DNA of 64,000 nucleotides from a virus: the IMG/VR virus record IMGVR_UViG_3300022837_000010, positions 3,030 through 67,029 of that record, one strand, 5' to 3'. A model generated the notes under the pieces. That model saw only the letters and a list, made by a program, of their open reading frames with translations, was not told the origin of the DNA and did no database searches. Positions 20,134 to 62,420 of the stretch are shown piece by piece; position 1 is the first letter of the stretch; each line of letters begins with the position of its first letter. The translations under genes and the position numbers were made by a program.

Positions 20134-21654
20134 ATGGATAAGTTCAAACAAATTTTTAGCGGATTAACAATAGCATATGGACAATATCAACCCGGTGACA
20201 GAGGAGAGAATGGTACTAAACAAAAAGGTAAAGCCTTTATTGTTCGTAAACCCGTTACCGACGATCTCTGGACCAATCATCTTGAAGGAAAAGGACCAGC
20301 CCTTGGGATTATCCCTATCACAGAAAATAATGATTGCAGGTGGGGTTGCATTGATATTGACGAATATGACCTTGATCACGTTAGCCTCATTAAAAGTATT
20401 CGGAGTCTTAAACTCCCTGTAATAGTCTGCCGATCTAAATCAGGTGGAGCACACGTCTTTTTATTTACCAAAGAAAATATTCCTGCATCATTGATGCAGT
20501 CAAAATTAAAACAAATGGCACTCGTACTGGGTTACGAGGGTTCAGAAATATTTCCAAAACAAACAGAAATTTTAGTGGAACGTGGTGACACTGGAAACTT
20601 TTTAAACTTACCTTACCACAATCAAATGAAAGGACTACGTTATGCTATCAACGATACTGGCGCCGGTTGTACACTTGAGGAATTTTATCAGCTCTATGAT
20701 GTTTACGCTCGCACGAGGAAAGAAGTTGAAGAAATTAAAACGGAAGAAACGAAAATAGAAGAAGCGTTTCCAGGAGGACCCCCTTGCTTAAATAAATTGG
20801 CAGCGATAGGTTTTGGTGAGGGGTCTAGAAATAATGCATTATTTAATGTAGCAGTTTATTATAAACAATCTAATCCAGATACTTGGGAAGATGAAATTGT
20901 AAAAGCTAATTCTAAATACATGGAACCCCCTTTAAGTAATAATGAAGTTCAACAATTAATTAAATCAGTTAATAGAAAAGGTTATGACAAGTACAGATGT
21001 AAAGATGCACCTATTAATTCTGTGTGTCAAGCAGGTTTATGTAGAACAAAAAGATTTGGTGTAGGTTTTGGTGAAGAAGAAATGCCGGTACTTGGAAGCT
21101 TAACTAAATACACATCAACACCACCACAATGGTTTTTAAATGTGGATAAGACTAGAGTGGAATTAAAAACAGAACAATTATATAGCCCACCTTTATTTGC
21201 CCTGGCATGTTTGGACCAAGCTAATTTAATAGTTCCAGTTCCTAAACCTAAAGATTGGAAGCAACATTTTTTAAAACCAATGATGACTAATTTACAAGAA
21301 GTAGAACCTTTAGCTTCTTTAAATCCAATGAATGAAATTACAGGGTTGTTGCAAGATTGGACTACTAATAGACAGAGTGCAAGAACTATGGATGATATTT
21401 TTAATAAACTTCCTTTTACAGAAGATGGTTTTACTTATTTTAGAATGGAAGATTTTTATGCATTCTTAAAAAAGAATAACTGGGATATGGATAAAGTTAA
21501 AACAGGAAACTTAATTAAAAGATTGGATGATATTTTTATTGAGGAAACCAGACTACGTGTAAAACAACAACAACCTAGGGTTGTTAAGATTAAAACCATG
21601 AAGAAATTAGAAGCATCAGTTTCTAAAGTAGAATACCAACAGGATGATTTTTAA
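20134..21654 (+). CDS. AEP-type primase with PriCT-like domain
   Basis: IDID, SKSGGAH, NLPY motifs; EGSRNNALF...PPLSNNEV. Confidence 0.85.
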   Translation: MDKFKQIFSGLTIAYGQYQPGDRGENGTKQKGKAFIVRKPVTDDLWTNHLEGKGPALGIIPITENNDCRWGCIDIDEYDLDHVSLIKSIRSLKLPVIVCRSKSGGAHVFLFTKENIPASLMQSKLKQMALVLGYEGSEIFPKQTEILVERGDTGNFLNLPYHNQMKGLRYAINDTGAGCTLEEFYQLYDVYARTRKEVEEIKTEETKIEEAFPGGPPCLNKLAAIGFGEGSRNNALFNVAVYYKQSNPDTWEDEIVKANSKYMEPPLSNNEVQQLIKSVNRKGYDKYRCKDAPINSVCQAGLCRTKRFGVGFGEEEMPVLGSLTKYTSTPPQWFLNVDKTRVELKTEQLYSPPLFALACLDQANLIVPVPKPKDWKQHFLKPMMTNLQEVEPLASLNPMNEITGLLQDWTTNRQSARTMDDIFNKLPFTEDGFTYFRMEDFYAFLKKNNWDMDKVKTGNLIKRLDDIFIEETRLRVKQQQPRVVKIKTMKKLEASVSKVEYQQDDF

Positions 21655-21730
21655 TGAGGGAAAGAGAATTTTATATGGATTTAATAACTATAACATTTTG
21701 GACTGCTTTATATATTTGGAGTACATTTTT

Positions 21731-21949
21731 ATGAAATACGGATTAACTGAAAAACAATTAAAACTATTTAATTTTATTAAAGAGTATATCAATGAAAATA
21801 ATATACCACCCTCTTATGATGAGATGACGGCAGCATTAGGTTTAGTCTCTAAATGTGGTATAGCAACAAAAATAGTACAACTACAAGAAAGAGGATGGAT
21901 AACAAAGCTACCAGGTAAAAGTAGAAGCATACAAATAATAAAAATATGA
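21731..21949 (+). CDS. LexA N-terminal-like winged-HTH regulator (no peptidase domain)
   Basis: LTEKQLKLFNFI...PPSYDEM...LGLVSK...LQERGWI...GKSRSI. Confidence 0.85.
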   Translation: MKYGLTEKQLKLFNFIKEYINENNIPPSYDEMTAALGLVSKCGIATKIVQLQERGWITKLPGKSRSIQIIKI

Positions 21950-27451: not shown

Positions 27452-27596
27452 TTATCGTAAAGTTATCTGTAGTGAGTGTAAAGGCAATGGTTATGTAAGA
27501 TCTCTATTTGAGGAAGGTAGAGAGGAACTTATAAGCGATTGCAAACACTGCAACAATCAAGGTGAAATAACAATAAAGGAGAGAATCAATGACTGA
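27435..27596 (+). CDS. DnaJ-type zinc-finger peptide (53 aa, not in track)
   Basis: CSECKGNG...CKHCNNQG. Confidence 0.7.
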   Translation: MAQENSYRKVICSECKGNGYVRSLFEEGREELISDCKHCNNQGEITIKERIND

Positions 27597-28014
27597 ATTA
27601 AAAGAAGAACACTTCGAAGTAATAGATGCTAATAGGGCAAAGGACCATGAGAAGAAAAACTATAAACCATTAAGTTATGATTTATTTATTGAGGAAAGTT
27701 TAATTGAAGGCCAGGGTTTATTTTCATCTATAGACATACCTAAAGGAACTGATCTAGGGGTTTCTCATATTGAACTTGAGAAAGATAAGATGTCTCCTAA
27801 AGAATTAATCAGAACTCCACTTGGAGGATTTATTAATCATGAGCCAACTGTTAAAGAATTACAAAATGATAAGTTGGTTGAAATCTCTGGTCCTAATTGT
27901 GAGAAGATTAAACAACGTCCTGATGGCGCTAAAACCGAATGGAATTTAGTTACACTTAAAGATATTAAAATGGGGGATGAACTTACTTTAGAGTATAGTT
28001 TTTATAAATTATAA
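27589..28014 (+). CDS. SET-domain protein (putative lysine methyltransferase)
   Basis: S.IEGQGLFS..DIPKG, GFINH...PNC, KDIKMGDELTLEY. Confidence 0.85.
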   Translation: MTELKEEHFEVIDANRAKDHEKKNYKPLSYDLFIEESLIEGQGLFSSIDIPKGTDLGVSHIELEKDKMSPKELIRTPLGGFINHEPTVKELQNDKLVEISGPNCEKIKQRPDGAKTEWNLVTLKDIKMGDELTLEYSFYKL

Positions 28015-28181: not shown

Positions 28182-28871
28182 ATGAGTGATTATAGAGTAA
28201 GAATATCAATAAGAAATGAGAGATTATTATCAGCTATTGAGGGGGCAGGCTATCCTTCTGCACGACAATGTTCAATTGTTAATGGTTATCCTTCAATTAA
28301 AATAGGACAATTAGTTAGTGGTTCGAGGAAACCTTTAGATACTAAAACAGGTAAGCCCACTAAATTTTGTAAAGAAGTTTTAAAAATCCTAGGTAAAAAT
28401 ATAGAGGATTGTTTTACGGAAAGACAACTTAAAGGATTTAAAAAAAGTAGTTATCAAATTAAAGTAGATGAAAAAGAACTTAAACAATTAGTTAGCTACC
28501 ATAAAAATGAAGGGGATACTCTTCTTGAAGCTGATTTAGATAGAAAGATTACACAAGTTTTATCTATTCGACTAACTCCTAGAGAAGAAAAAGTAATCAG
28601 AATGCATTATGGGTTAGGGATAGACAAACCACATGATATAATTGAGATAGCCGATTATTTTGGTGTAACTAGATCAAGATTGGATCAAATACTAAAAAAA
28701 GCTATTATAAAATTACAACATCCTGTTACGAAAGGTCTTTTATTGAGTACTGGATTCTATGACAAATTTACTAAAGTAGATGTAGATCCATCAGAGATGG
28801 GTGAGGCAGAAGAATATTTACAGCGAGAAAGAATAATAACAACACAAAAAAGGCTACACAATGAAATATAA
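28182..28871 (+). CDS. Protein with sigma70 region-4 HTH
   Basis: LTPREEKVIRMHYGL...EIADYFGVTRSRLDQILKKAIIKLQHP, RpoD region-4-like. Confidence 0.8.
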   Translation: MSDYRVRISIRNERLLSAIEGAGYPSARQCSIVNGYPSIKIGQLVSGSRKPLDTKTGKPTKFCKEVLKILGKNIEDCFTERQLKGFKKSSYQIKVDEKELKQLVSYHKNEGDTLLEADLDRKITQVLSIRLTPREEKVIRMHYGLGIDKPHDIIEIADYFGVTRSRLDQILKKAIIKLQHPVTKGLLLSTGFYDKFTKVDVDPSEMGEAEEYLQRERIITTQKRLHNEI

Positions 28872-32859: not shown

Positions 32860-33005
32860 CAAAAAAAACTGGACTATATGCAAACATCCATGCCAAGCGT
32901 GCTAGGATTGCAGCAGGCTCTAATGAAAAAATGAGAAAACCTGGAGCTAAAGGTGCACCAACTGCTAAACAATTTAAAAAAGCGGCAAAGACTGCTAAAG
33001 CGTAA
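32856..33005 (+). CDS. Small Lys/Ala-rich basic protein (49 aa)
   Basis: MTKKTGLYANIHAKRARI...MRKPGAKGAPTAKQFKKAAKTAKA. Confidence 0.75.
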   Translation: MTKKTGLYANIHAKRARIAAGSNEKMRKPGAKGAPTAKQFKKAAKTAKA

Positions 33006-33169
33006 TGCCATTCAAATCAGATAAACAAAGAAAATATCTATATGCTAAAAAACCTAATGTTGCAGAAAAATTTTCAAAAGATTCAAAAAGAAAAGGTGGA
33101 TCTATTAAAAAGAAAACTCACAAAATGCCCGACGGTACAATAATGAAAGGGGCAAAACATCCGAAATGA
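33005..33169 (+). CDS. Small Lys-rich basic protein (54 aa, not in track)
   Basis: MPFKSDKQRKYLYAKKP...RKGGSIKKKTHKMPDGTIMKGAKHPK. Confidence 0.7.
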   Translation: MPFKSDKQRKYLYAKKPNVAEKFSKDSKRKGGSIKKKTHKMPDGTIMKGAKHPK

Positions 33170-33321
33170 CAAAAAATCCAACACTAACGAAGAATATGCT
33201 AAATGTTAAATGGAACGAAATACCTCCGGTTAAAGGCCCAGATTCACAAGGAATTAAAACAGCTATCGAAAAACCAAGAAAATATAAGACAATTCTTACA
33301 GTTTCAAAACCGAAGACTTAA
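33166..33321 (+). CDS. Small basic protein (51 aa, not in track)
   Basis: MTKNPTL...IPPVKGPDSQGIK...; ATGA overlap. Confidence 0.6.
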   Translation: MTKNPTLTKNMLNVKWNEIPPVKGPDSQGIKTAIEKPRKYKTILTVSKPKT

Positions 33322-33878
33322 TTTAATTTCTTTATATTTTTGTATTTTACAGTTTCCTCTGATTGTTCTTCTACTTCTGTTTCTTCTATAGTATTTTCTT
33401 CTATAACTGTTTCTTGAATTACATCTACTGCAGTACCATCTATAATATCTTTATGATCTTTTAGAATATCTTTCATTCTTTCTTCTAATTCTTGTTCTGT
33501 TAGTTTATCTATACTGCCTGTTAAAATTAATTTTTGGTCTACATATAGACCTCCAGCCTTGCCTCTTGCTACCTCTGCATTTACTGCGGCACTCCAGGCC
33601 CCTTTTGCCAGCGCTTGGTCTCTAATCTTGGCTAGCTCGCTCACATGCCTATTAAAATCAATACCATACTTCTCTTGAACTTCTGCTCGCAACTCCCCTA
33701 TATATCTTACAACCAATGGTGAGTATTTAGGATTTCGTAGCTCGCTTGCGGCTTGACGGGGTCTAGTCTTATAACCTGCTTCCTTTGCACATTCTGCAGG
33801 AGACATACGCCCTTCATTATAAACTAGCAATTCTGCGAATTTAATTTGTCTTTCAGTTAATTTAGCCGGTACACCCAT
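33318..33878 (-). CDS. terS: Terminase small subunit
   Basis: LTERQIKFA...CAKEAGYK...ASEL HTH; AAVNAEVARGKAGGLY. Confidence 0.8.
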   Translation of the reverse strand: MGVPAKLTERQIKFAELLVYNEGRMSPAECAKEAGYKTRPRQAASELRNPKYSPLVVRYIGELRAEVQEKYGIDFNRHVSELAKIRDQALAKGAWSAAVNAEVARGKAGGLYVDQKLILTGSIDKLTEQELEERMKDILKDHKDIIDGTAVDVIQETVIEENTIEETEVEEQSEETVKYKNIKKLN

Positions 33879-33914
33879 GCTTGACTTATATCGTACATTG
33901 GCGTATAAATCAAG

Positions 33915-33997
33915 TCACATTAGTAATATTGAATTAGGGGGTGGCTTACTAACTACCTTACATCACGTAATTGGTACGGATACTGACCCCCTTTTTT
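33915..33997 (+). ncRNA. Candidate small RNA
   Basis: TTGACT-17-TATAAA (33881..33909); AGGGGGT/ACCCCCT closing stem plus T6 tract; no ORF. Confidence 0.4.
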
Positions 33998-34235
33998 ATT
34001 CTAAATGTTGATCCCACGCATCTTTTATTTCTTTTTTTAAATTGTAAAGTGCACTTGGATTTTCATCATTAACTAGTTTAATTAAAATATCATCTATCCA
34101 ATTTTCATAATCATCACCTAACCAATACTGCACCATATCTTTATTAACTGCTCGCTCGCTTGCTCGCTTGCTCGCTCTCTCACCTTCTCTATATCTCTCT
34201 GCACTTGCGCCCGTGTTCCAATGTTTTATTGTCAT
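33996..34235 (-). CDS. Hypothetical early protein
   Basis: RBS AAGGA; contains GAGC repeat translated as ERASKRASERA. Confidence 0.65.
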   Translation of the reverse strand: MTIKHWNTGASAERYREGERASKRASERAVNKDMVQYWLGDDYENWIDDILIKLVNDENPSALYNLKKEIKDAWDQHLE

Positions 34236-34248
34236 GTTATCCTTTCTT

Positions 34249-34446
34249 TTAGATTTCATTTAGATCGGCAAAGTCATAATACCAATCACCTTCTTGATTA
34301 TCATTTTTATGTATATCTAATTTACCATCACTGTGCATTTGTTCAGCTACCTTAACAGCGTCCTTCTCATTTTTTGCCATAACATCTGCATAGTACCAAT
34401 GATCTTGTGTCATTCTTACTGTGTAGGGTTTAAGTTTATTTTTCAT
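34249..34446 (-). CDS. Hypothetical early protein
   Basis: RBS GAGGAG; YYADVMAKNEKDAVKVA. Confidence 0.7.
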   Translation of the reverse strand: MKNKLKPYTVRMTQDHWYYADVMAKNEKDAVKVAEQMHSDGKLDIHKNDNQEGDWYYDFADLNEI

Positions 34447-34447
34447 A

Positions 34448-34612
34448 TTACTTCTCCTCTATTATTTTAATTATTTCTTTAAATTCCAAATTAATATCTT
34501 CCATATTATTATCCCAATCATAATCAGCATTAATTTTACAAATTTCTAATACTTGATTTAATTTTTTTTCTAAATTATCAATTTGTTTTATATTTTCTAG
34601 CCCTTCGTTCAT
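34448..34612 (-). CDS. Hypothetical early protein (54 aa, not in track)
   Basis: AGAAAGGATAATATG; MNEGLENIKQIDNLEKKL... Confidence 0.6.
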   Translation of the reverse strand: MNEGLENIKQIDNLEKKLNQVLEICKINADYDWDNNMEDINLEFKEIIKIIEEK

Positions 34613-34613
34613 A

Positions 34614-34787
34614 TTATCCTTTCTGCTCGCTCGCTTGTTGGTTTATTAATTTTAATTTAAGTTTGTATAATTTACCTAAATACATTTTATCTTTTATTGG
34701 ATATTCATAAGAACACATATTAAATTGATCGTAATAACTTTCAATATCATCTATTTTTTTATCTAATTGTTTTATTGTTAATGACAC
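34614..34787 (-). CDS. Hypothetical early protein (57 aa, GTG start, not in track)
   Basis: AGAGAGGATAATGTG; MSLTIKQLDKKIDDIESYY... Confidence 0.55.
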   Translation of the reverse strand: MSLTIKQLDKKIDDIESYYDQFNMCSYEYPIKDKMYLGKLYKLKLKLINQQASEQKG

Positions 34788-34811
34788 ATTATCCTCTCTA
34801 TTTGTTGGTTA

Positions 34812-35078
34812 TTATAAGTTATCAAATGTTTTTTTAATATTTCTTAACTGCGCCTTAAGTTTTGCATTTTCTTTTGATATTCTTGTGATTATTTCATCAT
34901 CTGCTAGTTCATCTTTTAATTGACGTCTTATATAATGGGTAAAATGCATATCCCCATGTTTAATATCTTCTCCCTTACTTTCGGAATAGGTCTCATCCTC
35001 CAAAAATTCCGCAATATCGCAAGGCGTTTTTTTATTTGTGAAGTGTTTTTCTATTTCTATTATGTCTTTTAGTTTCAT
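34812..35078 (-). CDS. Hypothetical early protein
   Basis: AGAGAGGATAATATG; YSESKGEDIKHGDMH. Confidence 0.7.
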   Translation of the reverse strand: MKLKDIIEIEKHFTNKKTPCDIAEFLEDETYSESKGEDIKHGDMHFTHYIRRQLKDELADDEIITRISKENAKLKAQLRNIKKTFDNL

Positions 35079-35269
35079 ATTATCCTCTCTGCTTGCTCGC
35101 TCGCTCGCTCGCTTGTTAGTTTTTTTGCTCGCTCGCTCGCTTGTTAATTTTAGGGGATGAGCTACGCCAACGTGTGGCGACTTCTTTTACAACGCCTGCA
35201 GGCGTCAACTCGTTTTCCCCATTATTTAATTTAAGGTACAACTGATTTGAAACCTTAAATAAAATTCTT

Positions 35270-35947
35270 TTAGTGTATACCATACTCAATATTTTTAATT
35301 TCAGGCTTCCAACATGCGCGACAGCTCCCGCAATGTCCTAAATCAAGTTGTTTTTTATCTTTTTTTGTAAATTTTTTATATTTATTAATGCCGTGAATTT
35401 TACCCGTTTTATCAGTTCTATAAGCCCCGCAACTTTTTAAAGAAGGCTTGCTTGTCACTGTCGAAGTATTATTCCAGGAATCCGCGCCCACCTGGTCAAC
35501 CATAGGCATTGAAAAACGTACTACTAAATTTTTAGGCGCTTTAGATATATAAGGTTTTACCCAGGCTTCTCGAGTTGGTAACCAATGTAAAATATCAGGC
35601 GTTAATTTAGCAACTTTATATATTTTGGCCAGGTGTTTTAAACTTTGTAAATCCCCGCTATCATGCCACCTAAATATTTTTGTTTTTTTAGAATTAATTA
35701 ATAGGGCCATTGCTTCAACCCATTTAATATTTTTAATAGAATTTAAACGTCTATATTGAGCGTCCTGGACTATAGGAAAAACATAACAACCTTTTAAGGC
35801 ATAACAACCAAAACAAGTTGACCCTTTAATTTTACGTAATTTTTTACCCGTTTTACATTCTTTGGCGGGTATACCATAAGCCCACCCAGGCATTTTTGAA
35901 GGTTTTGCAAGCCCACCCACAAGGGCCCAGGCTTCTCTAGTATTCAT
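35270..35947 (-). CDS. GP88-like Fe-S (radical-SAM-like) protein
   Basis: SKMPG...C...CFGCYA...FRWHDSGD...CGSCRACW. Confidence 0.8.
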   Translation of the reverse strand: MNTREAWALVGGLAKPSKMPGWAYGIPAKECKTGKKLRKIKGSTCFGCYALKGCYVFPIVQDAQYRRLNSIKNIKWVEAMALLINSKKTKIFRWHDSGDLQSLKHLAKIYKVAKLTPDILHWLPTREAWVKPYISKAPKNLVVRFSMPMVDQVGADSWNNTSTVTSKPSLKSCGAYRTDKTGKIHGINKYKKFTKKDKKQLDLGHCGSCRACWKPEIKNIEYGIH

Positions 35948-35949
35948 AA

Positions 35950-36114
35950 TTAGTTCTCCATACAATCATCACAGTAACGGCCGTCTCTTTTACTTCTATT
36001 TTTATAAATGTAATTATTGCAACTTCTACAATTTACAAAAATATCGCCTTCTTTACTGTCATCTTTTTTGTTAGTTTTAATTTGTTTTTTTTCAATTCTT
36101 ATTTCTTTAAACAT
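35950..36114 (-). CDS. Small zinc-finger protein
   Basis: CRSC...YCDDC; promoter TTGACT-17-TATATA immediately upstream. Confidence 0.6.
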   Translation of the reverse strand: MFKEIRIEKKQIKTNKKDDSKEGDIFVNCRSCNNYIYKNRSKRDGRYCDDCMEN

Positions 36115-36119
36115 ATATC

Positions 36120-36212
36120 TTATATAATCCCATAATATCAATTAGTCAACCCCTTTTTTATTTTTATTTCTATTGACTTGTATTTAAATATATTGTTATA
36201 TTGTCCCATAAT
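36120..36212. promoter_or_regulatory. Divergent sigma70 promoters with TCCCATA motifs
   Basis: Minus: TTGACT-17-TATATA; plus: TTGACT-18-TATATT. Confidence 0.6.
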
Positions 36213-36236
36213 AACAATTAATAAAAAGGTGTAAAT

Positions 36237-36428
36237 ATGAAACTAAATAAACTAATACAAAAAATAAATAAAGAAATGGCACCCCCCGAAGGGTGGACGC
36301 CCGAAGCCAAAGAAGGCGCAAAAATTGCAGGGTCAATTGGCTTAAGTCTTGACGACCTGGACGACAGTGGAGATATGGCCGAAGAGTTAGAAAAAATTAT
36401 GAATCCAGATAGTGATTTATATAATTAA
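36237..36428 (+). CDS. Hypothetical acidic protein
   Basis: RBS AAGGTG; 63 aa. Confidence 0.65.
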   Translation: MKLNKLIQKINKEMAPPEGWTPEAKEGAKIAGSIGLSLDDLDDSGDMAEELEKIMNPDSDLYN

Positions 36429-36445
36429 CCAACCAATAGGATAAC

Positions 36446-36643
36446 ATGAAATATATAATAATAAATAAATGGCAACTAAAAGGTGTTAAACCTCAATACT
36501 ATTTAAGAGAAGTAATTGAAGACCTTGACACAGCTAACAAAAAATTAAAAGCTCATAGAATTATTGAAAGCGCCGAAGAGCATAGTTTTTACATCGTCCC
36601 GTTTGACGAAAGCGTTCTTTTATTAGATAAACAAGTTGCGTAA
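36446..36643 (+). CDS. Hypothetical protein
   Basis: RBS AGGA; 65 aa. Confidence 0.65.
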   Translation: MKYIIINKWQLKGVKPQYYLREVIEDLDTANKKLKAHRIIESAEEHSFYIVPFDESVLLLDKQVA

Positions 36644-36682
36644 ATTTGACTATTTTGGTTTTACTGTATATACAAGTGTACG

Positions 36683-37051
36683 GTGAAACCAGAACAAAAA
36701 TTATATCATTTATTCAAAAAAAACTGTCCTGAAATACTGATTACACGGCTTGAATTATATTCCGCGCCAGGTGTCAGTGATTTACTATTATATAATAAGC
36801 TCAACGGTTTTTCTTTATTAGAGCTTAAAATACAAACAGGCAATAAAATTAAATTTAGCCCACACCAGATACTATTCCACACCACCAGAAATAAACGTAA
36901 TTATATTCTAGTTCAAACCGCAAGCGGTTCACGGTCAATGGTAAAACTTTACAGCTCTAAAAGTATCCAGGCCCTGGCCCTCGACCCGCGCGACGCCACC
37001 CCGCTAGCCGTGAATGATTGGCAAAAAATAGAAAAAATTTTAATCAGTTAA
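36683..37051 (+). CDS. VRR-NUC / Holliday-junction-resolvase-like nuclease
   Basis: PGVSDLL...LLELK...FSPHQILF. Confidence 0.75.
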   Translation: MKPEQKLYHLFKKNCPEILITRLELYSAPGVSDLLLYNKLNGFSLLELKIQTGNKIKFSPHQILFHTTRNKRNYILVQTASGSRSMVKLYSSKSIQALALDPRDATPLAVNDWQKIEKILIS

Positions 37052-37060
37052 TCAAACCGA

Positions 37061-37214
37061 GGCCCGCGCTCAACCGCACCTGGACGCCCTCAACAGCCCT
37101 CAACAGCCCTCAACAGCACCCAACAGCACCCAACCACAACGGCCCGCGCTCCATGTTTCACGTGTCAATGTGGCATAACCGCGCACCGCTATATGTTGTG
37201 TCAATGTGGCATAA
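37061..37214. repeat. GC-rich repeat patch
   Basis: 10-bp tandem CAACAGC(C/A)C(T/C) x4.5 (37091..37135) bracketed by GGCCCGCGCTC (37061, 37141); GTGTCAATGTGGCATAA at 37162 and 37198. Confidence 0.9.
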
Positions 37215-37353
37215 TGACGCGCGATGATTTGTCGCAGGCTTGTGACCTTCGGGCCCACCCACCCATTTAAAAAATAAAAAACACGGCTCGCGCACAGGTT
37301 GTGCTTGTGACCTACGGGCCCACTCCCCCCCAAAAATGAAAAAAATTAAGATA

Positions 37354-37380
37354 AAAAAAGGGGGCTAAAAAGCCCCCTTT
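37354..37380 (-). terminator. Intrinsic terminator
   Basis: AAAGGGGGCT-AAA-AGCCCCCTTT-like stem with T-tract on minus strand, after gene 37388..37651. Confidence 0.75.
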
Positions 37381-37387
37381 AAATTGG

Positions 37388-37651
37388 TTATCGGATCTCG
37401 GGATCGTCCGAAATACGATTTTCTTGCGCCCAATAATCACGGTTGTCTTGTTTGTTAGCGTAATAAAAACCCTCTTGCTCTTCCGCAAGTTGCTCAAGCC
37501 ATATCCATAAAGGCATTGGCAGGCCGTCATTACCATCGATGAAATCTTTAGTTGCCCAAAAATTATCTCGATCTGATATTTTCTTTTTGATTTGAGCGAC
37601 CGTAAACTCTCCGTCGTTACCCTCAAAACAAACTTTTATTTTTTTAAACAT
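37388..37651 (-). CDS. Hypothetical early protein
   Basis: 87 aa; followed by terminator. Confidence 0.7.
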   Translation of the reverse strand: MFKKIKVCFEGNDGEFTVAQIKKKISDRDNFWATKDFIDGNDGLPMPLWIWLEQLAEEQEGFYYANKQDNRDYWAQENRISDDPEIR

Positions 37652-37813
37652 ATAAAAAGATTATTGCATAATTAAATTAATTTCAAACTACATGTAGTGG
37701 TGTGACACTATAACACGGCTTGTTACCTTTGGGCCCACCCTCCCCGTTCCATGTACCATTGCTTGTGGACTCTGGGCCCACCCTCCCTGTACAAAATTAA
37801 AAATAAAAAAGGC

Positions 37814-37849
37814 AAAGAAAAACCCCGCTTCAATTATCTTGAAGCGGGG
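37814..37849 (-). terminator. Intrinsic terminator
   Basis: CCCCGCTTCAA/TTGAAGCGGGG stem with TTTTTCTTT on minus strand. Confidence 0.85.
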
Positions 37850-37856
37850 TTTGTTG

Positions 37857-38024
37857 TTATTGTTTAGATATAATAGTTAATTTATTATATATAAGGTCGT
37901 ATCTTTCACTATCTAAACCTACGTCATTCTTATCTAGTTCTTTAGCCCCTAAAGAGCTGTCAGCATACCACTCTTCCAAAGTTTCTAATAAATTGTCAGC
38001 GTCTTTTTTTGTTATTTTTACCAT
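37857..38024 (-). CDS. Hypothetical early protein
   Basis: RBS AAGGA; MVKITKKDADNLLETLEEWY. Confidence 0.65.
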   Translation of the reverse strand: MVKITKKDADNLLETLEEWYADSSLGAKELDKNDVGLDSERYDLIYNKLTIISKQ

Positions 38025-38040
38025 TTTTATATTCCTTTTA

Positions 38041-38361
38041 TTAAGATTGTAATTCTTCAAATGATTTAGGTGTAAACCATCTATCACGCTCAATACCTAG
38101 CCCCATGCTAACCCGCATTGACGCTAATTCATCTAGGCTAACATAACCTAATTCAGCGTCACCCACATCACATAAGCCAAATGCTATATTGGTGTTAGGG
38201 TCAAGCTCGGACAAGTACCACGTACCACGGCCCGTTGGATTGAATAATTTTACCACCGCTTTAAATTCTTTGTATTGCGGGTGCTCATCATTCCAATATT
38301 TTTTGTGGTGCTCATGATTTTTTACAAGTTTTTCTTTTTGTGCTTTTGTTAGTAGTTCCAT
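38041..38361 (-). CDS. DUF2958-family protein
   Basis: VVKLFNPTGRGTWYLSELD...FGLCD...ELGYVSLDEL...IERDRWF. Confidence 0.85.
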   Translation of the reverse strand: MELLTKAQKEKLVKNHEHHKKYWNDEHPQYKEFKAVVKLFNPTGRGTWYLSELDPNTNIAFGLCDVGDAELGYVSLDELASMRVSMGLGIERDRWFTPKSFEELQS

Positions 38362-38362
38362 A

Positions 38363-38548
38363 TTATATCTCCTCACTAGGTTGTTTTAATTTGTAGCCTA
38401 GGGCTTTGATACAATCAATCACACCAGGTAACAAAGTTTTATTTCCGCTAATGTTAGCAAAAATTTTAGCTTTATCACAAACGGGATAAACATATTCATT
38501 ACCCCAATTTGATTTTCTTTTTACTATTATTGTTTTTTCATCTGTCAT
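38363..38548 (-). CDS. Hypothetical early protein (paralog of 39198..39371)
   Basis: KSNWGNEYVYPVCDKAKIFANISGNKTLL...IKALGY. Confidence 0.75.
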   Translation of the reverse strand: MTDEKTIIVKRKSNWGNEYVYPVCDKAKIFANISGNKTLLPGVIDCIKALGYKLKQPSEEI

Positions 38549-38735
38549 ACATAGACAATATATAGTTCACCATGTAATTCAATATATATATTATATTATC
38601 CCATACGCAATATGTCGCACCACTGCTTGTGAACTTTGGGCCCACCCTCCTATAACATGCTTGTGACCTCTGGGCCCACCCTCCTATAAAAAAAATAAAA
38701 TGTAGTTTAGAATTATTCTAATGTAGATTTTAGGT

Positions 38736-38771
38736 AAAGAAAAACCCCGCTCCAAGTATCTCGGAGCGGGG
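38736..38771 (-). terminator. Intrinsic terminator (paralog of 37814)
   Basis: CCCCGCTCCAA/TCGGAGCGGGG, compensatory change versus 37814, same AAAGAAAAA flank. Confidence 0.85.
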
Positions 38772-38779
38772 TGAGTTGG

Positions 38780-38998
38780 TTAGCTGATTACTTTCCAAGT
38801 CACAGAACTTTCAAAATTATTATAAGGAACAAACCCTTCTGTTTTATTTTGAAATACTACTTCATCTCTTATGAAGGCTTTTAATTGGTCAGCGCCTTCC
38901 TCTTGGTCTTTAAAAGCCTTACCCGTATCATCAGCGTATTGGTGGTCAGCTTCTATTTTTTTCTTATCGATTGTGAATGTTAAAGTTTCGTTACTCAT
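38780..38998 (-). CDS. Hypothetical early protein
   Basis: RBS AAGGAG; 72 aa. Confidence 0.7.
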   Translation of the reverse strand: MSNETLTFTIDKKKIEADHQYADDTGKAFKDQEEGADQLKAFIRDEVVFQNKTEGFVPYNNFESSVTWKVIS

Positions 38999-39201
38999 TA
39001 TTTTTGCTCCTTGTTTAGTTTTTCTATTTCAGTAAATGCCATTTGTGTAGCGTCTCCAAATGTCATTTGATTATTCAAACCGATTGAATTTATTTTACCA
39101 TTAGATTTATTTTCTAATAATAAAAGCCATCTTCTCGACCCGATGTCATCGCTGTAGGTAGTTTCACAACTGAACCAATAACCTTGATAACTATTCTTCA
39201 T
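38998..39201 (-). CDS. Hypothetical early protein
   Basis: RBS GGAGG; 67 aa. Confidence 0.7.
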   Translation of the reverse strand: MKNSYQGYWFSCETTYSDDIGSRRWLLLLENKSNGKINSIGLNNQMTFGDATQMAFTEIEKLNKEQK

Positions 39202-39371
39202 ATTGCCTCCGATTTAGTTACTAGAGAATACCCTAGTTTTTTTATTAATTTAATATCATCAGCAAGCAAAGTCTTTTGACCTGTCAACGCTGTTAATATT
39301 TGCGACTTACTACACTTGGGGTAGATACGCTCTACCCCAAATACATTTTTCTTCTCTACGATTAGTTGCAT
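39198..39371 (-). CDS. Hypothetical early protein (57 aa, not in track; paralog of 38363..38548)
   Basis: MQLIVEKKNVFGVERIYPKCSKSQILTALTGQKTLL...IKKLGY. Confidence 0.75.
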   Translation of the reverse strand: MQLIVEKKNVFGVERIYPKCSKSQILTALTGQKTLLADDIKLIKKLGYSLVTKSEAI

Positions 39372-39580
39372 TATTTCTCTTCCCTTTTTTCTAGTTCAAC
39401 TCTGTAATCAAAATCTTTTGAAGCAAGTTCAACTATTCTTGATTGTAGTTCTTTATATTCATCACGAGGCATTAGGTCACTTAAAGAACTAACAGTGCAG
39501 TCCTTCCATCTCTTAACCCATTGGTCTTCAGTGTTAACCACCTCCTTACCAAACATATTATAAGTATTAATTGTTTTCAT
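39371..39580 (-). CDS. Hypothetical early protein
   Basis: RBS AAGGA; MKTINTYNMFGKEV... Confidence 0.65.
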   Translation of the reverse strand: MKTINTYNMFGKEVVNTEDQWVKRWKDCTVSSLSDLMPRDEYKELQSRIVELASKDFDYRVELEKREEK

Positions 39581-40014
39581 TTTTATATTTCCTTTTTTTA
39601 TTTTCATATCACTTACTGTACCAGTTAACTTGTAGTACTAAAGAACATTCGTATAATATCCCAAGCGATGCGACAACTTTGACCAGTGTGATATCTTTAC
39701 TACACTCCGAAAACGCATACCCACATCTTGTGTCGATGCGACATCTTCGCTACTAGATGTAGTGGTGCGACAATATGTCGCAGTCAGCTCGTGCCCTACG
39801 GGCCCACCCTCCGCACACACACACAAACAAAGTCGAGGGGTCCCTAGACCTTTGAGTGTAACTATGATATAAACACCCCCTACACCCCTTTTCGTGGGGT
39901 CTAGCAAATTATTTAGTCTATATAGTTGGTTTTAGACAAAGACATGCTATAAAATACAAACGAAAAAAAAAACTAATAAAAACAGAGTCTGAAAAAATTC
40001 TGCAAAAAATTTAT

Positions 40015-41478
40015 ATGGATGAAGAGAAGTTAAATAGATTACCCCCGGACGTTAAGAAACAATTCTTAAAGTATGCAATAAAACTATCTGAAAAAAAACA
40101 GAAGACTAAAGTCCACGATGACTTCTTAACTTTTGTAAAACATGTCTGGCCTGAATTTATAGAAGGTAAACATCACAAAGAAATTGCAAAAAAATTTAAT
40201 GATATTGCAAATGGCAAAATAAAAAGACTCATTATTAATATGCCACCTAGACACACAAAATCGGAATTTGCATCTTTTCTATTACCTGCCTGGATGGTGG
40301 GACGAAGACCTAATTTAAAAATTATACAATCCACGCACACCACTGAACTTGCAATAAGATTTGGTCGTAAGGCAAAGACTCTTATGGACTCTCCAGAATA
40401 TAAACAAGTATTCGAGACAAGACTCCGAGAGGACAGTCAAGCCGCGGGCAAATGGGAGACGGCACAAGGTGGAGAATATTATGCAGCGGGTGTCGGATCA
40501 GCGATCACGGGTCGTGGAGCGGACTTATTGATTATTGATGATCCTCACTCGGAGCAAGATGCGTTGAACATGTCATCCATGGAACGTGCTTATGAATGGT
40601 ATACATCCGGACCACGTCAAAGACTTCAACCAGGTGGAACTATTGTAGTCGTTATGACTAGATGGAATATGAAAGATCTAACAGGGATGTTATTAAAACA
40701 TCAAAAAGAATTAAAATCAGATAAATGGGAACTTATAGAATTTCCTGCAATCCTTCCATCAGGTAAATCAGTTTGGCCAGAGTATTGGAAGTTAGAAGAA
40801 TTAGAAGGAGTTAAGGCCAGTTTAAGTGTTGGTAAGTGGAACGCGCAATGGATGCAAAACCCAACTTCTGAAGAAGGCTCTTTAATCAAAAGGGAATGGT
40901 GGCGGAAATGGGACCGGGATTATATTCCAAAACTACAACATGTCATACAATCTTATGATACTGCTTTTCTTAAAAAAGAATCTGCCGATTACTCTGCAAT
41001 CACTACTTGGGGTGTATTTCAAGAAAATCCTGACTCTGCTCCTAATTTAATTTTATTGGACGCCGTCAAGGAACGACTCGAATTTCCAGAACTTCGTAAA
41101 AAAGCCAAGGAACAATATGACTATTGGAAACCTGAAACAGTTATCATCGAGGCTAAAGCAAGTGGACTACCCTTAACTTATGAGTTGCGTAAGATGGGGA
41201 TACCTGTTATAAACTTCACTCCTAGTAAAGGTAATGATAAACATGCTAGGGTAAACGCCTGTTCACCTCTATTTGAGTCTGGACAAATTTGGGCGCCAGA
41301 TGAAAAATTCGCTGATGAGGTGATTGAAGAATGTGCATCATTTCCTTATGGAGATCATGATGATTTGGTGGATAGCACAACACAAGCGGTAATGCGATTT
41401 CGTCAAGGTGGTTTTATTGGTCACCCTGAAGATGAAAAAGACGAAGTTTCAATGCCACATAACAGGACTTATTATTAA
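40015..41478 (+). CDS. terL: Terminase large subunit
   Basis: MPPRHTKS Walker A variant, IIDDP, VMTRW, SYDTAF, HDDLVDS. Confidence 0.95.
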   Translation: MDEEKLNRLPPDVKKQFLKYAIKLSEKKQKTKVHDDFLTFVKHVWPEFIEGKHHKEIAKKFNDIANGKIKRLIINMPPRHTKSEFASFLLPAWMVGRRPNLKIIQSTHTTELAIRFGRKAKTLMDSPEYKQVFETRLREDSQAAGKWETAQGGEYYAAGVGSAITGRGADLLIIDDPHSEQDALNMSSMERAYEWYTSGPRQRLQPGGTIVVVMTRWNMKDLTGMLLKHQKELKSDKWELIEFPAILPSGKSVWPEYWKLEELEGVKASLSVGKWNAQWMQNPTSEEGSLIKREWWRKWDRDYIPKLQHVIQSYDTAFLKKESADYSAITTWGVFQENPDSAPNLILLDAVKERLEFPELRKKAKEQYDYWKPETVIIEAKASGLPLTYELRKMGIPVINFTPSKGNDKHARVNACSPLFESGQIWAPDEKFADEVIEECASFPYGDHDDLVDSTTQAVMRFRQGGFIGHPEDEKDEVSMPHNRTYY

Positions 41479-56075: not shown

Positions 56076-56246
56076 ATGAGTTACTATAATGAAATATATA
56101 TAGGTAATAAACCAGGTGCAGAGCAAATTTATACTCATGCGGAAGTTATTGATAATAAAAATATAGTTATAGAATCTGCGGTTCTCGCTGGACCAGTCAC
56201 TTTCCCCAATGTAATCACAGTAACCGGAACGTTGGTAATTGTCTAA
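56076..56246 (+). CDS. Small tail protein (56 aa, not in track)
   Basis: YIGNKPG...SAVLAGPVTFPNVITVTGTLVIV; stop overlaps next ATG. Confidence 0.65.
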   Translation: MSYYNEIYIGNKPGAEQIYTHAEVIDNKNIVIESAVLAGPVTFPNVITVTGTLVIV

Positions 56247-57577
56247 TGAGCAAAATAGAAGTAAATGCAATTGAACCACAATGCGGAACTGATTTAACAG
56301 TTGGTGCAAGTGGTGATACTATTACTTTTCCAACTGGAACTACTGTTGTAAATAATGGTACGCAAACAGGATTCGGTAGAACAGGAACTGTAAATTGGGA
56401 TACAACTCCAAAAACTGCAACTTTTTCAGCAGTAAATGGTAATGGATATTTTGTTAATACAACAGCAGGAGTAATAACAGTTAATCTACCAGCAGGTGTC
56501 GCAGGTAATATTATATCAGTAGCCGATTATGCAGCAACTTGGCAAACTAATAATGTCACAGTTACTCCAAATGGAACAGATAAAATTGGTTCAATAAATC
56601 AAAGTGCAACTTTAAGTACAGAAGGACAATCAGTAACTTTAGTTTATGTAGATGCTACACAAGGTTGGATTAACACAATGGATTCAACTTCTAATGTTAG
56701 AGGAATACCTCCCTATATAGCAGCAACAGGTGGTACAATAACAACCGTTTGTACAGATTATAAAGTCCACACATTCACAGGTCCAGGAACATTTACAGTT
56801 ACAAATGCTGGAACTCCTTCAGGTTCAAATTCAATAGAATATTTAGTAATAGCGGGTGGAGCCGGTGGTGGCGGTGAAGAAGGTGGTGGTGGTGGAGCCG
56901 GTGGTTATAGAACTGCTAGTGGACTACCTGTTACAGCACAGGGCTATCCAATTGTGGTAGGTGGTGGTGGAGCGGGGATGACTTCTGCTTCCCCGGCAGC
57001 AAATGGGGTTGATTCAAGTGGATTTGCAATTACATCAACAGGTGGTGGATTTGGTGGAGGACAAACTGTTCCATATGTAGGTAGACCTGGTGGATCTGGT
57101 GGAGGAGGTCATGGTGATGGAGGTGGTTCTCCTCAAGTAGGTGGAACAGGTAATACTCCCCCCGTAAGTCCTTCTCAAGGTTTTGATGGTGGAGATGGTT
57201 CAGGAAGAACAGGAACAACAAATGAAGCTGGCGGTGGTGGTGGTGGAGCTGGAGCTATAGGTAGTAATGGTTCTCCTTCTCCTAATCCTGGAGGAACAGG
57301 TGGACCTGGTGGAGCAGGCGCAGTAAGTTCAATTAACGGAACACCAACAACTAGAGCTGGTGGTGGTGGTGGTGCAGCTGCAGCTTCGAGTGGAGTTATT
57401 GGAACAGGTGGATCAGGTGGTGGTGGAAATGGAACAAAAGATAATACAACAGCAGTAGCTGGAACAGTTAATACTGGAAGTGGCGGTGGTGGTGGTGGTG
57501 GAAACGGCGGAGCTCCTATAGCTTCTGGAGGTGCCGGCGGCTCTGGTATAGTAATAATAAGATACAAATTTCAATAA
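56246..57577 (+). CDS. Gly-rich tail fibre / receptor-binding paralog 1
   Basis: WDTTPKT...GYFVNT...ATGGT...YKVHTFTG...GGSGIVIIRYKFQ. Confidence 0.8.
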   Translation: MSKIEVNAIEPQCGTDLTVGASGDTITFPTGTTVVNNGTQTGFGRTGTVNWDTTPKTATFSAVNGNGYFVNTTAGVITVNLPAGVAGNIISVADYAATWQTNNVTVTPNGTDKIGSINQSATLSTEGQSVTLVYVDATQGWINTMDSTSNVRGIPPYIAATGGTITTVCTDYKVHTFTGPGTFTVTNAGTPSGSNSIEYLVIAGGAGGGGEEGGGGGAGGYRTASGLPVTAQGYPIVVGGGGAGMTSASPAANGVDSSGFAITSTGGGFGGGQTVPYVGRPGGSGGGGHGDGGGSPQVGGTGNTPPVSPSQGFDGGDGSGRTGTTNEAGGGGGGAGAIGSNGSPSPNPGGTGGPGGAGAVSSINGTPTTRAGGGGGAAAASSGVIGTGGSGGGGNGTKDNTTAVAGTVNTGSGGGGGGGNGGAPIASGGAGGSGIVIIRYKFQ

Positions 57578-57579
57578 TT

Positions 57580-58986
57580 ATGACAAGTATAATAAAAGTA
57601 AACAACGTACAAAACACAGCAGCAGGTAAAAATATTATCAAAGAAGTTGGTAATACAGTTACTATTGGTGCGAGTGGAGATACAGTTGCTTTAGCAGCCG
57701 GCGCTTCGCAATCCGGTTTTGGTCAAACATATTCAGCGGTTAGTTGGGATACAACTGCAAAAACAACTACTGTTACAGGTGTAGCAGGAGTAGGTTATTT
57801 TATAAATACATCAGGCGGTGCAGTAACAGCTAACTTACCAGCGGGTGTAGCTGGAGATGTTATAGCTTTTGCAGATTATACAAGAACTTTTCAAACAAAT
57901 AATTTAACAATAACACCTAATGGTTCAGAAAAAGTAGGTGGTGTAGCCGCTAATTTTGTAGCTCAAACTGAAGGTCAATCAATAACTTTAGTTTATGTAG
58001 ATGCAACAGAAGGTTGGATAAATACAGCTGAATCAACAGGACAAGCAGGATTATTACCAGCTTTTGTTACAGCAACAGGTGGAACAATAACTTGTTCAGG
58101 AGATTATAAAATTCATACATTTACAGGTCCGGGAACTTTTACAGTTTGTTCTGTAGGTAATCGTTTAGGATCAGAAACAGTAGATTATATGGTAATAGCT
58201 GGTGGTGGTGGTGGTGGACCTTCATCAAGTTCTAATGGTGGTGGTGGTGGTGGAGCTGGTGGTTATAGAGAATCTTCAGGAAGTGCATCAGGTTCATATA
58301 CCATTGGACTTCCTTCACAAAACTGTGCTGTATCAGCTTTAGCTGTTTCAGCTCAAGGCTATTCAATTATAGTAGGAGGCGGAGGTTCAATAAATACAAA
58401 TGGTGTAAATTCAGTTTTTAGTACAATAACAAGTACTGGTGGTGGTGCAGGTGGTAGTGGACCAGGAGATGCTGGAAATTCAGGAGGTTCTGGTGGTGGA
58501 CCTGGAAAAGCAAATCCTTTATCTGGCGGAGCAGGTAATACTCCTCCAGTTAGTCCCTCTCAAGGAAATAATGGTGGAAATAATCCGGGAAGTCCAAATG
58601 AATCAAGTCCACAAGTTGGAACAGGTGGTGGTGGAGCAGGTTCAGCAGCTGCAGGCGTTGTTAGTAATACTAGAGGTGGAGCTGGTGCTGTTGGTGCAAC
58701 TTCATCTATAACAGCTTCACCAGTTAAAAGAGCAGGCGGTGGTGGAGGTGGTGGAGCTGATCCAGGTGGTGGAGGTGGAATATTTCCTCTTTGTGTATCA
58801 GGAGCTCCTTCACTTCTTTGTAGAACTGCACAATATGGTTCAGGTAGTGGAGGTATAACTGCTGGTGGTCAAGGTGGTAGTGGAACAGCTAATACTGGTG
58901 GAGGAGCTGGTGGCGGTGGTAACAACGGAGATGATGGTGGAACTGGTGGTTCAGGAGTAGTTATTATAAGGTACAAATTTCAATAG
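57580..58986 (+). CDS. Gly-rich tail fibre paralog 2
   Basis: Same conserved blocks, variable Gly-rich core. Confidence 0.8.
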   Translation: MTSIIKVNNVQNTAAGKNIIKEVGNTVTIGASGDTVALAAGASQSGFGQTYSAVSWDTTAKTTTVTGVAGVGYFINTSGGAVTANLPAGVAGDVIAFADYTRTFQTNNLTITPNGSEKVGGVAANFVAQTEGQSITLVYVDATEGWINTAESTGQAGLLPAFVTATGGTITCSGDYKIHTFTGPGTFTVCSVGNRLGSETVDYMVIAGGGGGGPSSSSNGGGGGGAGGYRESSGSASGSYTIGLPSQNCAVSALAVSAQGYSIIVGGGGSINTNGVNSVFSTITSTGGGAGGSGPGDAGNSGGSGGGPGKANPLSGGAGNTPPVSPSQGNNGGNNPGSPNESSPQVGTGGGGAGSAAAGVVSNTRGGAGAVGATSSITASPVKRAGGGGGGGADPGGGGGIFPLCVSGAPSLLCRTAQYGSGSGGITAGGQGGSGTANTGGGAGGGGNNGDDGGTGGSGVVIIRYKFQ

Positions 58987-58995
58987 GAAAAAATT

Positions 58996-60853: not shown

Positions 60854-61357
60854 ATGCAGAGACAAGTATTAACAGAACAGAGTTTATTTTACGGCGACAT
60901 TGATATGCCGAAAGGTTTTGAAATAGACCAAGAAAAACTTACCAACGATATTTTACAATCAACTTTTAACGCTAAAGAATTTCCATTCTCAAGAACTTGG
61001 GATATGTTAAACACATATATGAGAGACTTTATTGGTCTTGAACATGGTATCAATTTAGTTAACAAATCAACTTGGGGAAATATCTATAAACCCAATGAGA
61101 CAACAATTCCTTTATTAAATATTGATCCGGTGGATCTACGTAACTCTCCAGACTTTACTATGCTTTACGGCGTTAAAGTTAAAGATTGTTTTGTTAGAAT
61201 ACATTATGAAGATAACAGACGTAAAGGAAGAAGTTGGGATATAGAACTTAAAAATAATATGTTCATAATGTTTCCATCAACGAATATGTATTACATAACT
61301 AATAATCAGAAAGATAGTTTGAATTTTGTACAAACTATAACTTATGAATATATCTAA
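60854..61357 (+). CDS. Degenerate 2OG-Fe(II) oxygenase-like protein
   Basis: WGNIY...FIMFPS..Y.IT layout, but no HxD/H...H triad; its 3' end is also at window bases 1..45. Confidence 0.55.
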   Translation: MQRQVLTEQSLFYGDIDMPKGFEIDQEKLTNDILQSTFNAKEFPFSRTWDMLNTYMRDFIGLEHGINLVNKSTWGNIYKPNETTIPLLNIDPVDLRNSPDFTMLYGVKVKDCFVRIHYEDNRRKGRSWDIELKNNMFIMFPSTNMYYITNNQKDSLNFVQTITYEYI

Positions 61358-61973: not shown

Positions 61974-61974
61974 T

Positions 61975-62418
61975 ATGCCTTATAAAAATAAACAAGATAA
62001 AATAGATTATTTGGAAAAAAATAAAGATAAATTACGTGAAAAATCTAGACAATATTATTTAAATAATATTGAAAAATTTAAAGAAAAAGAAAGACATTAT
62101 AGAACTAATTCAAAAAGAATAGCCTATAGAATAAAATATAGAGAAGAAAACAAAGATAAGGCTAAAGACTATAAACTAAAAAAAACTTATGGAATATCTT
62201 TAAATGATTACAAAAAAATGTTAAAAAAACAAAATTACAAATGTGTACTTTGCAATGAGAAAAAGAAATTATATGTTGACCACGACCATAGTACAGGTGC
62301 TGTTAGAGAATTACTTTGCTCTACTTGCAACATAAAATTAGGTTTTTATGAAAAATCTAACAAAATAACATTTGAAATGTATATTAAAAAACACAAAAAA
62401 AGAAAGGATGTAAATTAA
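61975..62418 (+). mobile_element. Endonuclease VII-type homing endonuclease
   Basis: YGISLNDY...CVLC...VDHDH..GAVRELLCSTCN; absent from the left copy. Confidence 0.88.
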
Positions 62419-62420
62419 TA

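Follow-up and report, generated by a model that had tools for sequence, protein, structure and literature searches.

A co-oriented 27-bp repeat punctuates hypervariable gene modules between a resolvase-like nuclease gene and terL in a phage genome

What is the role of a 27-bp sequence that is repeated seven times, always in the same orientation, among small genes lying directly upstream of the large terminase gene (terL) of a phage? This question is raised by the viral record IMGVR_UViG_3300022837_000010 of IMG/VR, of which positions 3,030 to 67,029 were analysed (64,000 nt, referred to below as the window; coordinates are those of the window). A first-pass annotation had interpreted the region 37238-39812 as an array of early-gene cassettes, delimited by direct repeats and shuffled by a system resembling integrons or the promoter/stem-loop (PeSL) units of T4-type phages. 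The present analysis revealed that the repeat is the best conserved intergenic sequence of this region, and that the content of the modules separated by it is hypervariable among relatives.

The element (GCTYGTGNCCTNYGGGCCCACCCWCCC; 27 bp in register, followed by an A-rich stretch on its 3' side) occurs in seven + strand copies, which differ from the 26-mer noticed in the first-pass annotation at 0-2 positions, and the seven starts given there (37238, 37303, 37718, 37761, 38625, 38659 and 39787) all match. A scan of both strands of the 64-kb window with a weight matrix derived from relatives returned seven + strand sites of 40-53 bits: R1 (37238-37264, 53.3 bits), R2 (37303-37329, 40.2 bits), which is the most diverged copy, R3 (37718-37744, 48.5 bits), R4 (37761-37787, 50.1 bits), R5 (38625-38651, 45.1 bits), R6 (38659-38685, 47.6 bits), which matches the 26-mer exactly, and R7 (39787-39813, 46.6 bits), the terL-proximal copy, with the GCTCG variant typical of that position. 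All seven are conserved alike, not merely the terL-proximal one. No site scoring 12-40 bits was present on either strand of the window, i.e. there are no decayed copies. Dinucleotide-preserving shuffles (n = 100) produced zero matches to the 26-mer, and in the whole 67,029-bp record the 13-nt core of the element (≤1 mismatch) was found six times in forward and zero times in reverse orientation, only within the array.

Relatives were gathered in two ways. An exact-pattern scan of IMG/VR supplied at least 120 stretches, which together with the window and three GenBank relatives formed a motif-selected set of 124 loci; the counts of copies, contexts and neighbouring genes given for this set refer throughout to the matches listed. 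The set contained 422 copies in 121 of the 124 loci (1-7 per locus), which is no prevalence figure, since the loci had been picked by the pattern. Copies in mixed orientation were found in none of the 121 loci, all being co-oriented with terL. Logo positions left free by the search expression were 0.78-0.99 conserved; the flanks of the element were not conserved, save for the A-richness on its 3' side. In the second sample, comprising 80 loci chosen by terL alone, the core was detected in 13 loci, in forward orientation only (0/80 with a reverse copy); of the 22 loci whose sequence extends 3 kb or more upstream of terL, 4 had it. A conservation profile showed that 10-27 loci align over the repeats versus 0-5 over the module bodies, which are near-unalignable among relatives, whereas the repeats, terS, the GP88-family gene, the nuclease gene and terL align. 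The core is confined to the terS-terL interval in two full genomes; phage 023Pt_psg01 (59.8 kb) carries it five times, always forward and always between terS and terL.

In most of the core-less relatives, as in Pelagibacter phage HTVC027P, the GP88 gene is flanked on either side by forward-only arrays of the heptad GCTTGNN, of which the upstream one extends into the -35 of GP88. In locus L163 (terL 90% identical) the core is kept, yet three of the four copies having it differ in their left half, and a contig from the habitat of the window bears an L163-type left-half variant at the position of R1. Thus, a more widespread array has been elaborated into the full word in a sub-lineage. Each isolate lineage possesses its own repeat family in the TerS-terL interval. 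The repeat, the arrays, the nuclease gene and GP88 are all missing from HTVC023P (locus L009), whose terS-terL genes are all on the + strand; at 2087-2185 and 4536-4707 it carries its own 33-bp tandem repeats (3 copies) and related copies with a 58-bp period. The window itself also contains short-period arrays of GCTCGC/GCTTGC, akin to the left half of the repeat and present on the + strand only, at 34142-34197, 34625-34640 and 35083-35154 (within 34142-35154). The pentamer GCTYG occurs 47 times on the + strand of the window, with 38 of these sites within 32-40 kb, and 74 times on the - strand, scattered over the genome. Outside the minus-strand gene block it is nearly absent from the sense strand of genes (9 in ~56 kb), and its complement is common there. 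In 596 Gb of prokaryote genomes (185,579 species) the full motif was found in 26 stretches, none titled Pelagibacter and most of them single matches in GC-rich taxa or in short contigs of marine metagenome-assembled genomes; the element is specific to phage DNA and is no host word.

On its left side the array is bordered by a gene on the + strand (36683-37051) whose product was recognized in the first-pass annotation as a resolvase-like nuclease, and this assignment was borne out: the protein is PD-(D/E)xK nuclease-like, with residues E24, D33, E47 and K49 invariant in 21 homologues, some of which are named Holliday junction resolvase by JGI. Its AlphaFold2 model (pLDDT 86.8) gave weak Foldseek matches (best E 0.011, none ≤0.001), all of the restriction-endonuclease fold (among them EcoRV, PvuII, Hjc and a RecU-like chain; TM up to 0.56), and a search of PDB sequences with the nuclease profile returned one match, at chance level. 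Sequence and model fit a general junction resolvase, and sequence-specific cutting would also be compatible with them. The gene was on the + strand in all of the 99 loci having it. The first repeat followed it in 98 of these loci, at a median distance of 48 bp past the aligned end, and in none of the 99 was a repeat located upstream of it; the single exception was HTVC027P, with GCTTGNN heptad arrays after the nuclease gene. Because the repeats never lie upstream of the nuclease gene and are all placed between it and terL (40015-41478, +; Terminase_6C, E 3.8e-10), the array is bounded by these two genes.

Within these borders the seven repeats bound three modules of promoter, open reading frames (ORFs) and terminator, all on the minus strand. 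Module 1 (37357-37651) consists of a terminator (37380-37357) and an 87-aa ORF (37388-37651), preceded by a promoter region (37652-37717). Module 2 (37820-38618) comprises a terminator (37852-37820), three ORFs (37857-38024; 38041-38376, DUF2958, E 9.7e-25; 38363-38548) and a promoter-like site (38618-38590) followed by a TATGGGATAATAT box. Module 3 (38744-39786) comprises a terminator (38772-38744), four ORFs (38780-38998, 38998-39201, 39198-39371 and 39371-39607) and a control region, in which a TGGGATATTAT box lies near 39663 and a perfect palindrome of 17 bp, of the TGCGACA type, at 39766-39782. The minus-strand layout that had been proposed, i.e. repeat(s), TGCGACA-type element, promoter-like region, 1-4 small ORFs and terminator, was present in the ORF list and the terminator scan; the scan of 33000-40200 detected 13 terminator-like sites versus 4.0 expected. 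As judged from the sequence, each module has its own promoter-like site and terminator, in agreement with the description of the intervals as self-contained units. The kinship reported between modules was likewise recovered: two of the terminators are paralogous (85% identity, with a compensated double change in the stem from T-A to C-G), as are the ORFs 38363-38548 and 39198-39371 (45% identity, E 6e-16). Rfam gave three matches to small RNAs around the module-1 terminator, all of them sub-threshold.

The gaps that hold the repeats also contain palindromic operator-like sites. The GC-rich spacer upstream of R1 (37052-37237) comprises five tandem units of 10 bp as well as a 17-mer that has a TTGACA-like box and is present twice, and ends with TGTCGCA beside R1; at this position after the nuclease gene, relatives have TGCGACA-N3-TGTCGCA palindromes and TTGACA boxes. 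The R1-R2 spacer (37265-37302), with an A-tract, a mini hairpin with a minus-strand T-run and the usual left-flank word, looks like the leftover of an emptied module. A highly conserved box, TATGGGATATTAT, is found 17 nt past TTGACA in many loci, and in the window at 38605, 39663, 36134 and 36210 (-). In several relatives an ATG follows this box within ~10 nt or less, which suggests leaderless or near-leaderless mRNAs from promoters of this kind. The available text of a study of HTVC027P (PMC12753301) describes gp33 and gp34, located between terS and terL, as peaking in early-to-middle infection; gp33 is a homologue of the GP88-family gene of the window (35270-35965). Since this timing comes from HTVC027P, an early expression of the small modules is what we infer for the phage studied here.

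Mapping of the window and of ten relatives revealed that the copies lie between transcription units, beside a leftward -35, a rightward A-tract with TTGAC, or a terminator. Among 363 unique contexts, a leftward TTGACA was present within 60 nt in 120 and a rightward TTGAC in 70, and an A-rich tract adjoined the repeat on its 3' side in 106. Many of the leftward promoters have the form TTGACA-N17-TATGGGATATTAT, with the repeat ending 0 to ~40 nt upstream of the -35. Repeat pairs are spaced by 28-96 bp with no helical phasing, and the first copy is located 2-50 nt past the stop codon of the nuclease gene. The orientation of the element does not follow that of the genes: L013, and in part L100 and L008, have + strand modules between co-oriented repeats, and seven inverted matches correspond to the same gene placed in opposite orientations between co-oriented repeats of different genomes. 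In one sub-lineage (L042, L044 and L049), the stretch that separates the repeat from the -10 region of a leftward promoter contains two tandem perfect 9-mers of the DnaA-box type; their sequence suggests binding by the host DnaA.

Are the modules exchanged at the repeats? In L094, module 2 has been replaced between R4 and R5 (~37810 to 38621). Further replacements in this locus end at 38778/39016 and 39376/39586, and those in L067 at 37802/38036 and 39386/39593, all at terminators or at start or stop codons inside a module. Strain variants were traced in assembled contigs of four public runs from the same kind of habitat. A single copy replaces the R1-R2 pair in a variant found in three runs, and in one run contigs diverge exactly at 37238 and at 38650. 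Many of the swaps are single-gene events at gene junctions: a 67-aa ORF is exchanged for 187 other nucleotides between 39011 and 39206, and divergence at 39370/1 was seen in all four runs. The end points of internal homology were counted over all locus pairs (1200 end points, with crude ORF calls). The repeats and the 30 bp around them, which make up 8.3% of the region, held 209 of these (2.11-fold enrichment). ORF borders away from the repeats, again with 30 bp around them (20.7%), held 534, an enrichment of 2.15-fold and so equal to that at the repeats; the remaining 457 were at 0.54-fold. Exchange therefore uses the repeat, yet no more than other conserved short sequences. The proposed shuffling of modules at the repeats consequently stands as regards the hypervariable content and some replacements that end exactly at repeats, but not as regards the repeats being privileged breakpoints.

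We tentatively favour the view that the element is a recognition site read in double-stranded DNA in a sequence-specific manner, likely by a phage-encoded protein, which punctuates autonomous units and secondarily provides a patch of homology. A putative phage protein would bind the 27-bp element between the nuclease gene and terL. The occupied sites would lie in non-transcribed gaps, between the terminator of one sigma-70-type unit and the promoter of the next, where the bound protein would mark a boundary or exert control, either by insulating the units or within the regulation of early genes. The element may secondarily act as a patch for homologous recombination, because it is the only long identity in otherwise unrelated intergenic DNA, and modules could be replaced, duplicated or deleted through it in a PeSL-like manner. 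Protein binding, a boundary or regulatory effect and an early timing of the modules are thus what we infer. The copies of one genome share a subtype and close relatives differ (L163), which fits co-evolution with a genome-encoded binder. Binding of a protein had been one of the options offered in the first-pass annotation; this is the part that we retain, with the exception of TerS as the binder (see below).

Several observations weigh against this view, in addition to the enrichment of end points at ORF borders. The strongest are that the geometry varies, that there are copies located between convergent gene ends, and that most relatives do without the core. As the distance from repeat to -35 and the spacing of pairs both vary, there is no fixed geometry with RNA polymerase; a promoter-like box is near only about half of the copies, and promoters of the same type occur without a repeat at 36134 and 36210. 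The first copy of many relatives begins 2-26 nt past the nuclease stop codon and faces the 3' end of GP88, where no promoter is present, and variation of this region is also seen in loci that lack the core, which number 18 of the 22 extending 3 kb or more upstream of terL. No conserved DNA-binding protein was found among the proteins scanned, nor any other binder; no DNA-binding candidate emerged from a phyletic search across four full genomes, and relatives lack the two proteins of the window that have a LexA domain or a sigma region 4. Finally, the model does not require the strict co-orientation with terL, which would then have to be put down to descent; a polar DNA process (packaging, ejection or replication), or inheritance via homologous exchange, accounts for it better.

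The first of these processes provides the alternative that survives best, although we consider it unlikely: the copies may be a packaging or genome-end signal, i.e. sites for terminase, concatemer processing or ejection near the physical end of the genome. Direct polar repeats near terminase genes are exemplified by the R sites of cosB, by pac boxes and by the arrays of short repeats that adjoin the terminal repeat of T7. The element resembles them in being direct, polar and next to a terminase gene, with heptad arrays at the same place in relatives. It is located directly upstream of terL without a single locus of reverse orientation (0/121 motif-selected and 0/80 terL-selected), is unique to the terS-terL interval in two full genomes, and lies between the nuclease gene on one side and terL on the other; the lineage-specific repeat families occupy the same interval. 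The element differs from such terminase repeats in that its copies are interspersed with genes over a distance of 2.6 kb, and their equal conservation, not limited to the terL-proximal copy, does not suit a packaging site. Moreover, TerS does not co-vary with the repeat type. The same type is accompanied by TerS proteins 38-92% identical to that of the window (only 38% in L008, L097 and L021), the TerS of L163 is 91% identical despite the different left half of its repeats, and repeat-less relatives have a TerS 44-62% identical. TerS is therefore disfavoured as the binder; the packaging signal as such is kept despite this result.

An active role in exchange is improbable in our judgement. According to this explanation, the adjacent PD-(D/E)xK nuclease would recognize the word and cut or nick it, possibly on one strand, thereby stimulating the capture of modules, as an integrase-free functional analogue of an integron. 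It would account for the nuclease gene adjoining the first copy in 98/99 loci, for the location of all sites on one strand in a hypervariable region, for homologous genes in either orientation between co-oriented repeats (the seven inverted matches) and for repeat doublets resembling emptied slots; the fold of the nuclease is common to sequence-specific restriction enzymes and to Hjc/RecU. Its homologues are, however, more simply general junction resolvases, the gene is also present in relatives without the core, and breakpoints at repeats do not exceed those at ordinary gene borders. Localized single-strand interruptions in T5- and phiKMV-like phages occur at sites with a long bipartite consensus, few per genome and on one strand. 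The element shares these three features but, unlike those sites, is confined to one 2.6-kb region. If the nuclease did cut or nick the word, the interval from the resolvase gene to terL would be a dedicated landing pad in which modules are captured, inverted, duplicated and lost, an integrase-free counterpart of the integron in one of the most abundant virus groups of the sea.

Less probable again is a replication origin, in which the copies would be iteron-like sites for a phage initiator and the adjacent A-tract the unwinding element. Iterons flank the initiator gene in P1 (repA) and P4 (ori/crr), and the element is comparable with them in forming direct repeats of one orientation, with the arrays of relatives placed on both sides of GP88 and the upstream one overlapping the GP88 -35. 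Other features in line with an origin are the A-rich 3' tract (106/363 contexts), the short-period arrays beside many copies, the two perfect DnaA-box-like 9-mers abutting the repeat in L042, L044 and L049, and a position between divergent and convergent transcription. Against it, no initiator was found, the copies are scattered between genes instead of being clustered, and most relatives lack the core. GP88, the gene flanked by the arrays, does not have the look of a DNA-binding initiator, and the 27-bp copies also flank unrelated modules, which is unlike iterons. A role of GP88 as an iteron-binding initiator is not supported: Pfam, PDB and NCBIfam gave no function, and its look-alikes, DUF7227 and DUF5131, are not DNA-binding families.

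The least probable of the explanations retained is that the element works in the RNA of rightward transcription, as a terminator, anti-terminator or processing site, or else that a phage sigma factor or RNA polymerase uses it as a promoter. The fixed orientation relative to the long rightward late operon, the first copy shortly past the nuclease stop codon, loop positions that often form a UNCG-type tetraloop, and the sigma-70 region-4 protein encoded by this genome could be cited in its favour. Yet the seven copies folded no better than shuffled sequences (z -0.78 to +1.29), and the 3' half of the element is invariant and the 5' half, including the 5' arm, varies without compensation. No U-run follows the element and nothing at the repeats exceeded the Rfam gathering scores. 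A structured RNA was rejected on account of these results. A -10-like hexamer (TAnnnT) at the required distance from the -35-like GTGACC (17-bp spacer) was found in just 16 of 360 copies listed, and a sigma-70 promoter was rejected as well, as were sigma-32-like and sigma-54-like promoters, whose consensus spacings and -10 part did not fit in a comparison by eye. No RNA polymerase gene was detected among the window proteins scanned, and in the available part of the comparison with HTVC027P this gene is called HTVC022P-specific (PMC12753301). The sigma-like gene is absent from repeat-bearing relatives.

Two other candidates were dismissed. Mimicry of a CRISPR repeat was rejected because the 596 Gb of prokaryote genomes contained no arrays of the word and its spacing is irregular. 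As to a G-quadruplex, the conserved G-runs on the minus strand of the element number only three.

The likeness to integrons had to be abandoned. As in an integron (attI/attC with IntI), gene cassettes form an array and are parted by a repeated element. Scans of the ORFs of the region and of 40-odd other ORFs of the window against Pfam, PHROG and NCBIfam revealed no integrase or tyrosine recombinase, which agrees with the earlier remark that no recombinase is visible. In contrast to attC, the repeat is near-invariant, is no imperfect palindrome and does not fold, and the cassettes have their own promoters and terminators and may lie in either orientation.

The closest described system is the PeSL of T4-type phages. 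In the available text of two papers (PMC2839356, PMC4122927), PeSL cassettes are small ORFs with their own sigma-70-like promoter and terminator, located in a hyperplastic region. As there, short conserved intergenic repeats flank accessory ORFs in a hyperplastic region, and replacements or indels between close relatives end in regulatory sequences, here in part at the repeats (2.11- versus 2.15-fold overall). Unlike the PeSL, which these texts describe as a promoter with a terminator stem-loop, the element is neither; it lies between terminator and promoter and has no fold. It also differs in being far better conserved than the surrounding promoters and terminators, and in keeping one genomic orientation whatever the direction of the genes.

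The element is apparently undescribed so far. Term searches in the genome papers examined on HTVC023P-type phages found no mention of a promoter or of a DNA repeat or motif of this kind, the transcriptome paper examined does not mention promoters, and the matches listed for the core word were primer-type or otherwise unrelated uses. About 83% of the genes in this phage group are without an assigned function, and the terS-terL region is where close relatives differ most. The word thus offers a handle for finding and delimiting accessory modules, candidates for host takeover or anti-defence, in metagenomes, a bait for the protein reading it, and a testable case of gene shuffling in lytic marine phages.

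Judging by its sequence, the window derives from an HTVC023P-type phage: terL shows ~75% DNA identity to Pelagibacter phage HTVC027P and phage 023Pt_psg01, and the gene content agrees with that of the HTVC027P/023Pt_psg01 group. Nearly all genes point in the + direction, with terL first, followed by structural and then replication genes; the exception is the minus-strand block 33318-39607, in which, in reading order, the three modules come first and terS last. The window exceeds one genome length, since bases 1-1450 match 61313-63200; the genome unit is ~61.3-61.8 kb. The overlapping ends are only 83-94% identical, and the assembly seems to join two strain variants.

Between R7 and terL, the terL leader (39814-40014, +) contains blocks kept in relatives: GAGGGGTCCC (39835-39844), a C-rich block, a promoter-like block containing TTTTAGAC, and the TTCTGCAAAAA leader. 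The latter, A/T-rich and located just before the terL start (39990-40014; also in relatives), has no visible Shine-Dalgarno sequence. Of the other genes of the window, 28182-28871 (+) codes for a protein of 229 aa that contains a sigma-70 region-4 domain (Pfam E 3e-8) and is matched best in NCBIfam by the MzaA sigma factor and by RpoD at its C-terminal end. No homologue turned up among three full relatives and 123 related loci, so the gene is an accessory one of this phage. A LexA DNA-binding-domain protein (21644-21949, +; E 4.5e-15) is likewise without a match in three full relatives or related loci, and a SET-domain protein (27589-28014, +; E 3.6e-5) has matches in two related loci. Three paralogous genes in tandem at 56246-60339 (+), with products of 443, 468 and 447 aa that have conserved ends and contain glycine-rich repeats of the GGTGGTGG type, probably specify fibre or spike proteins.

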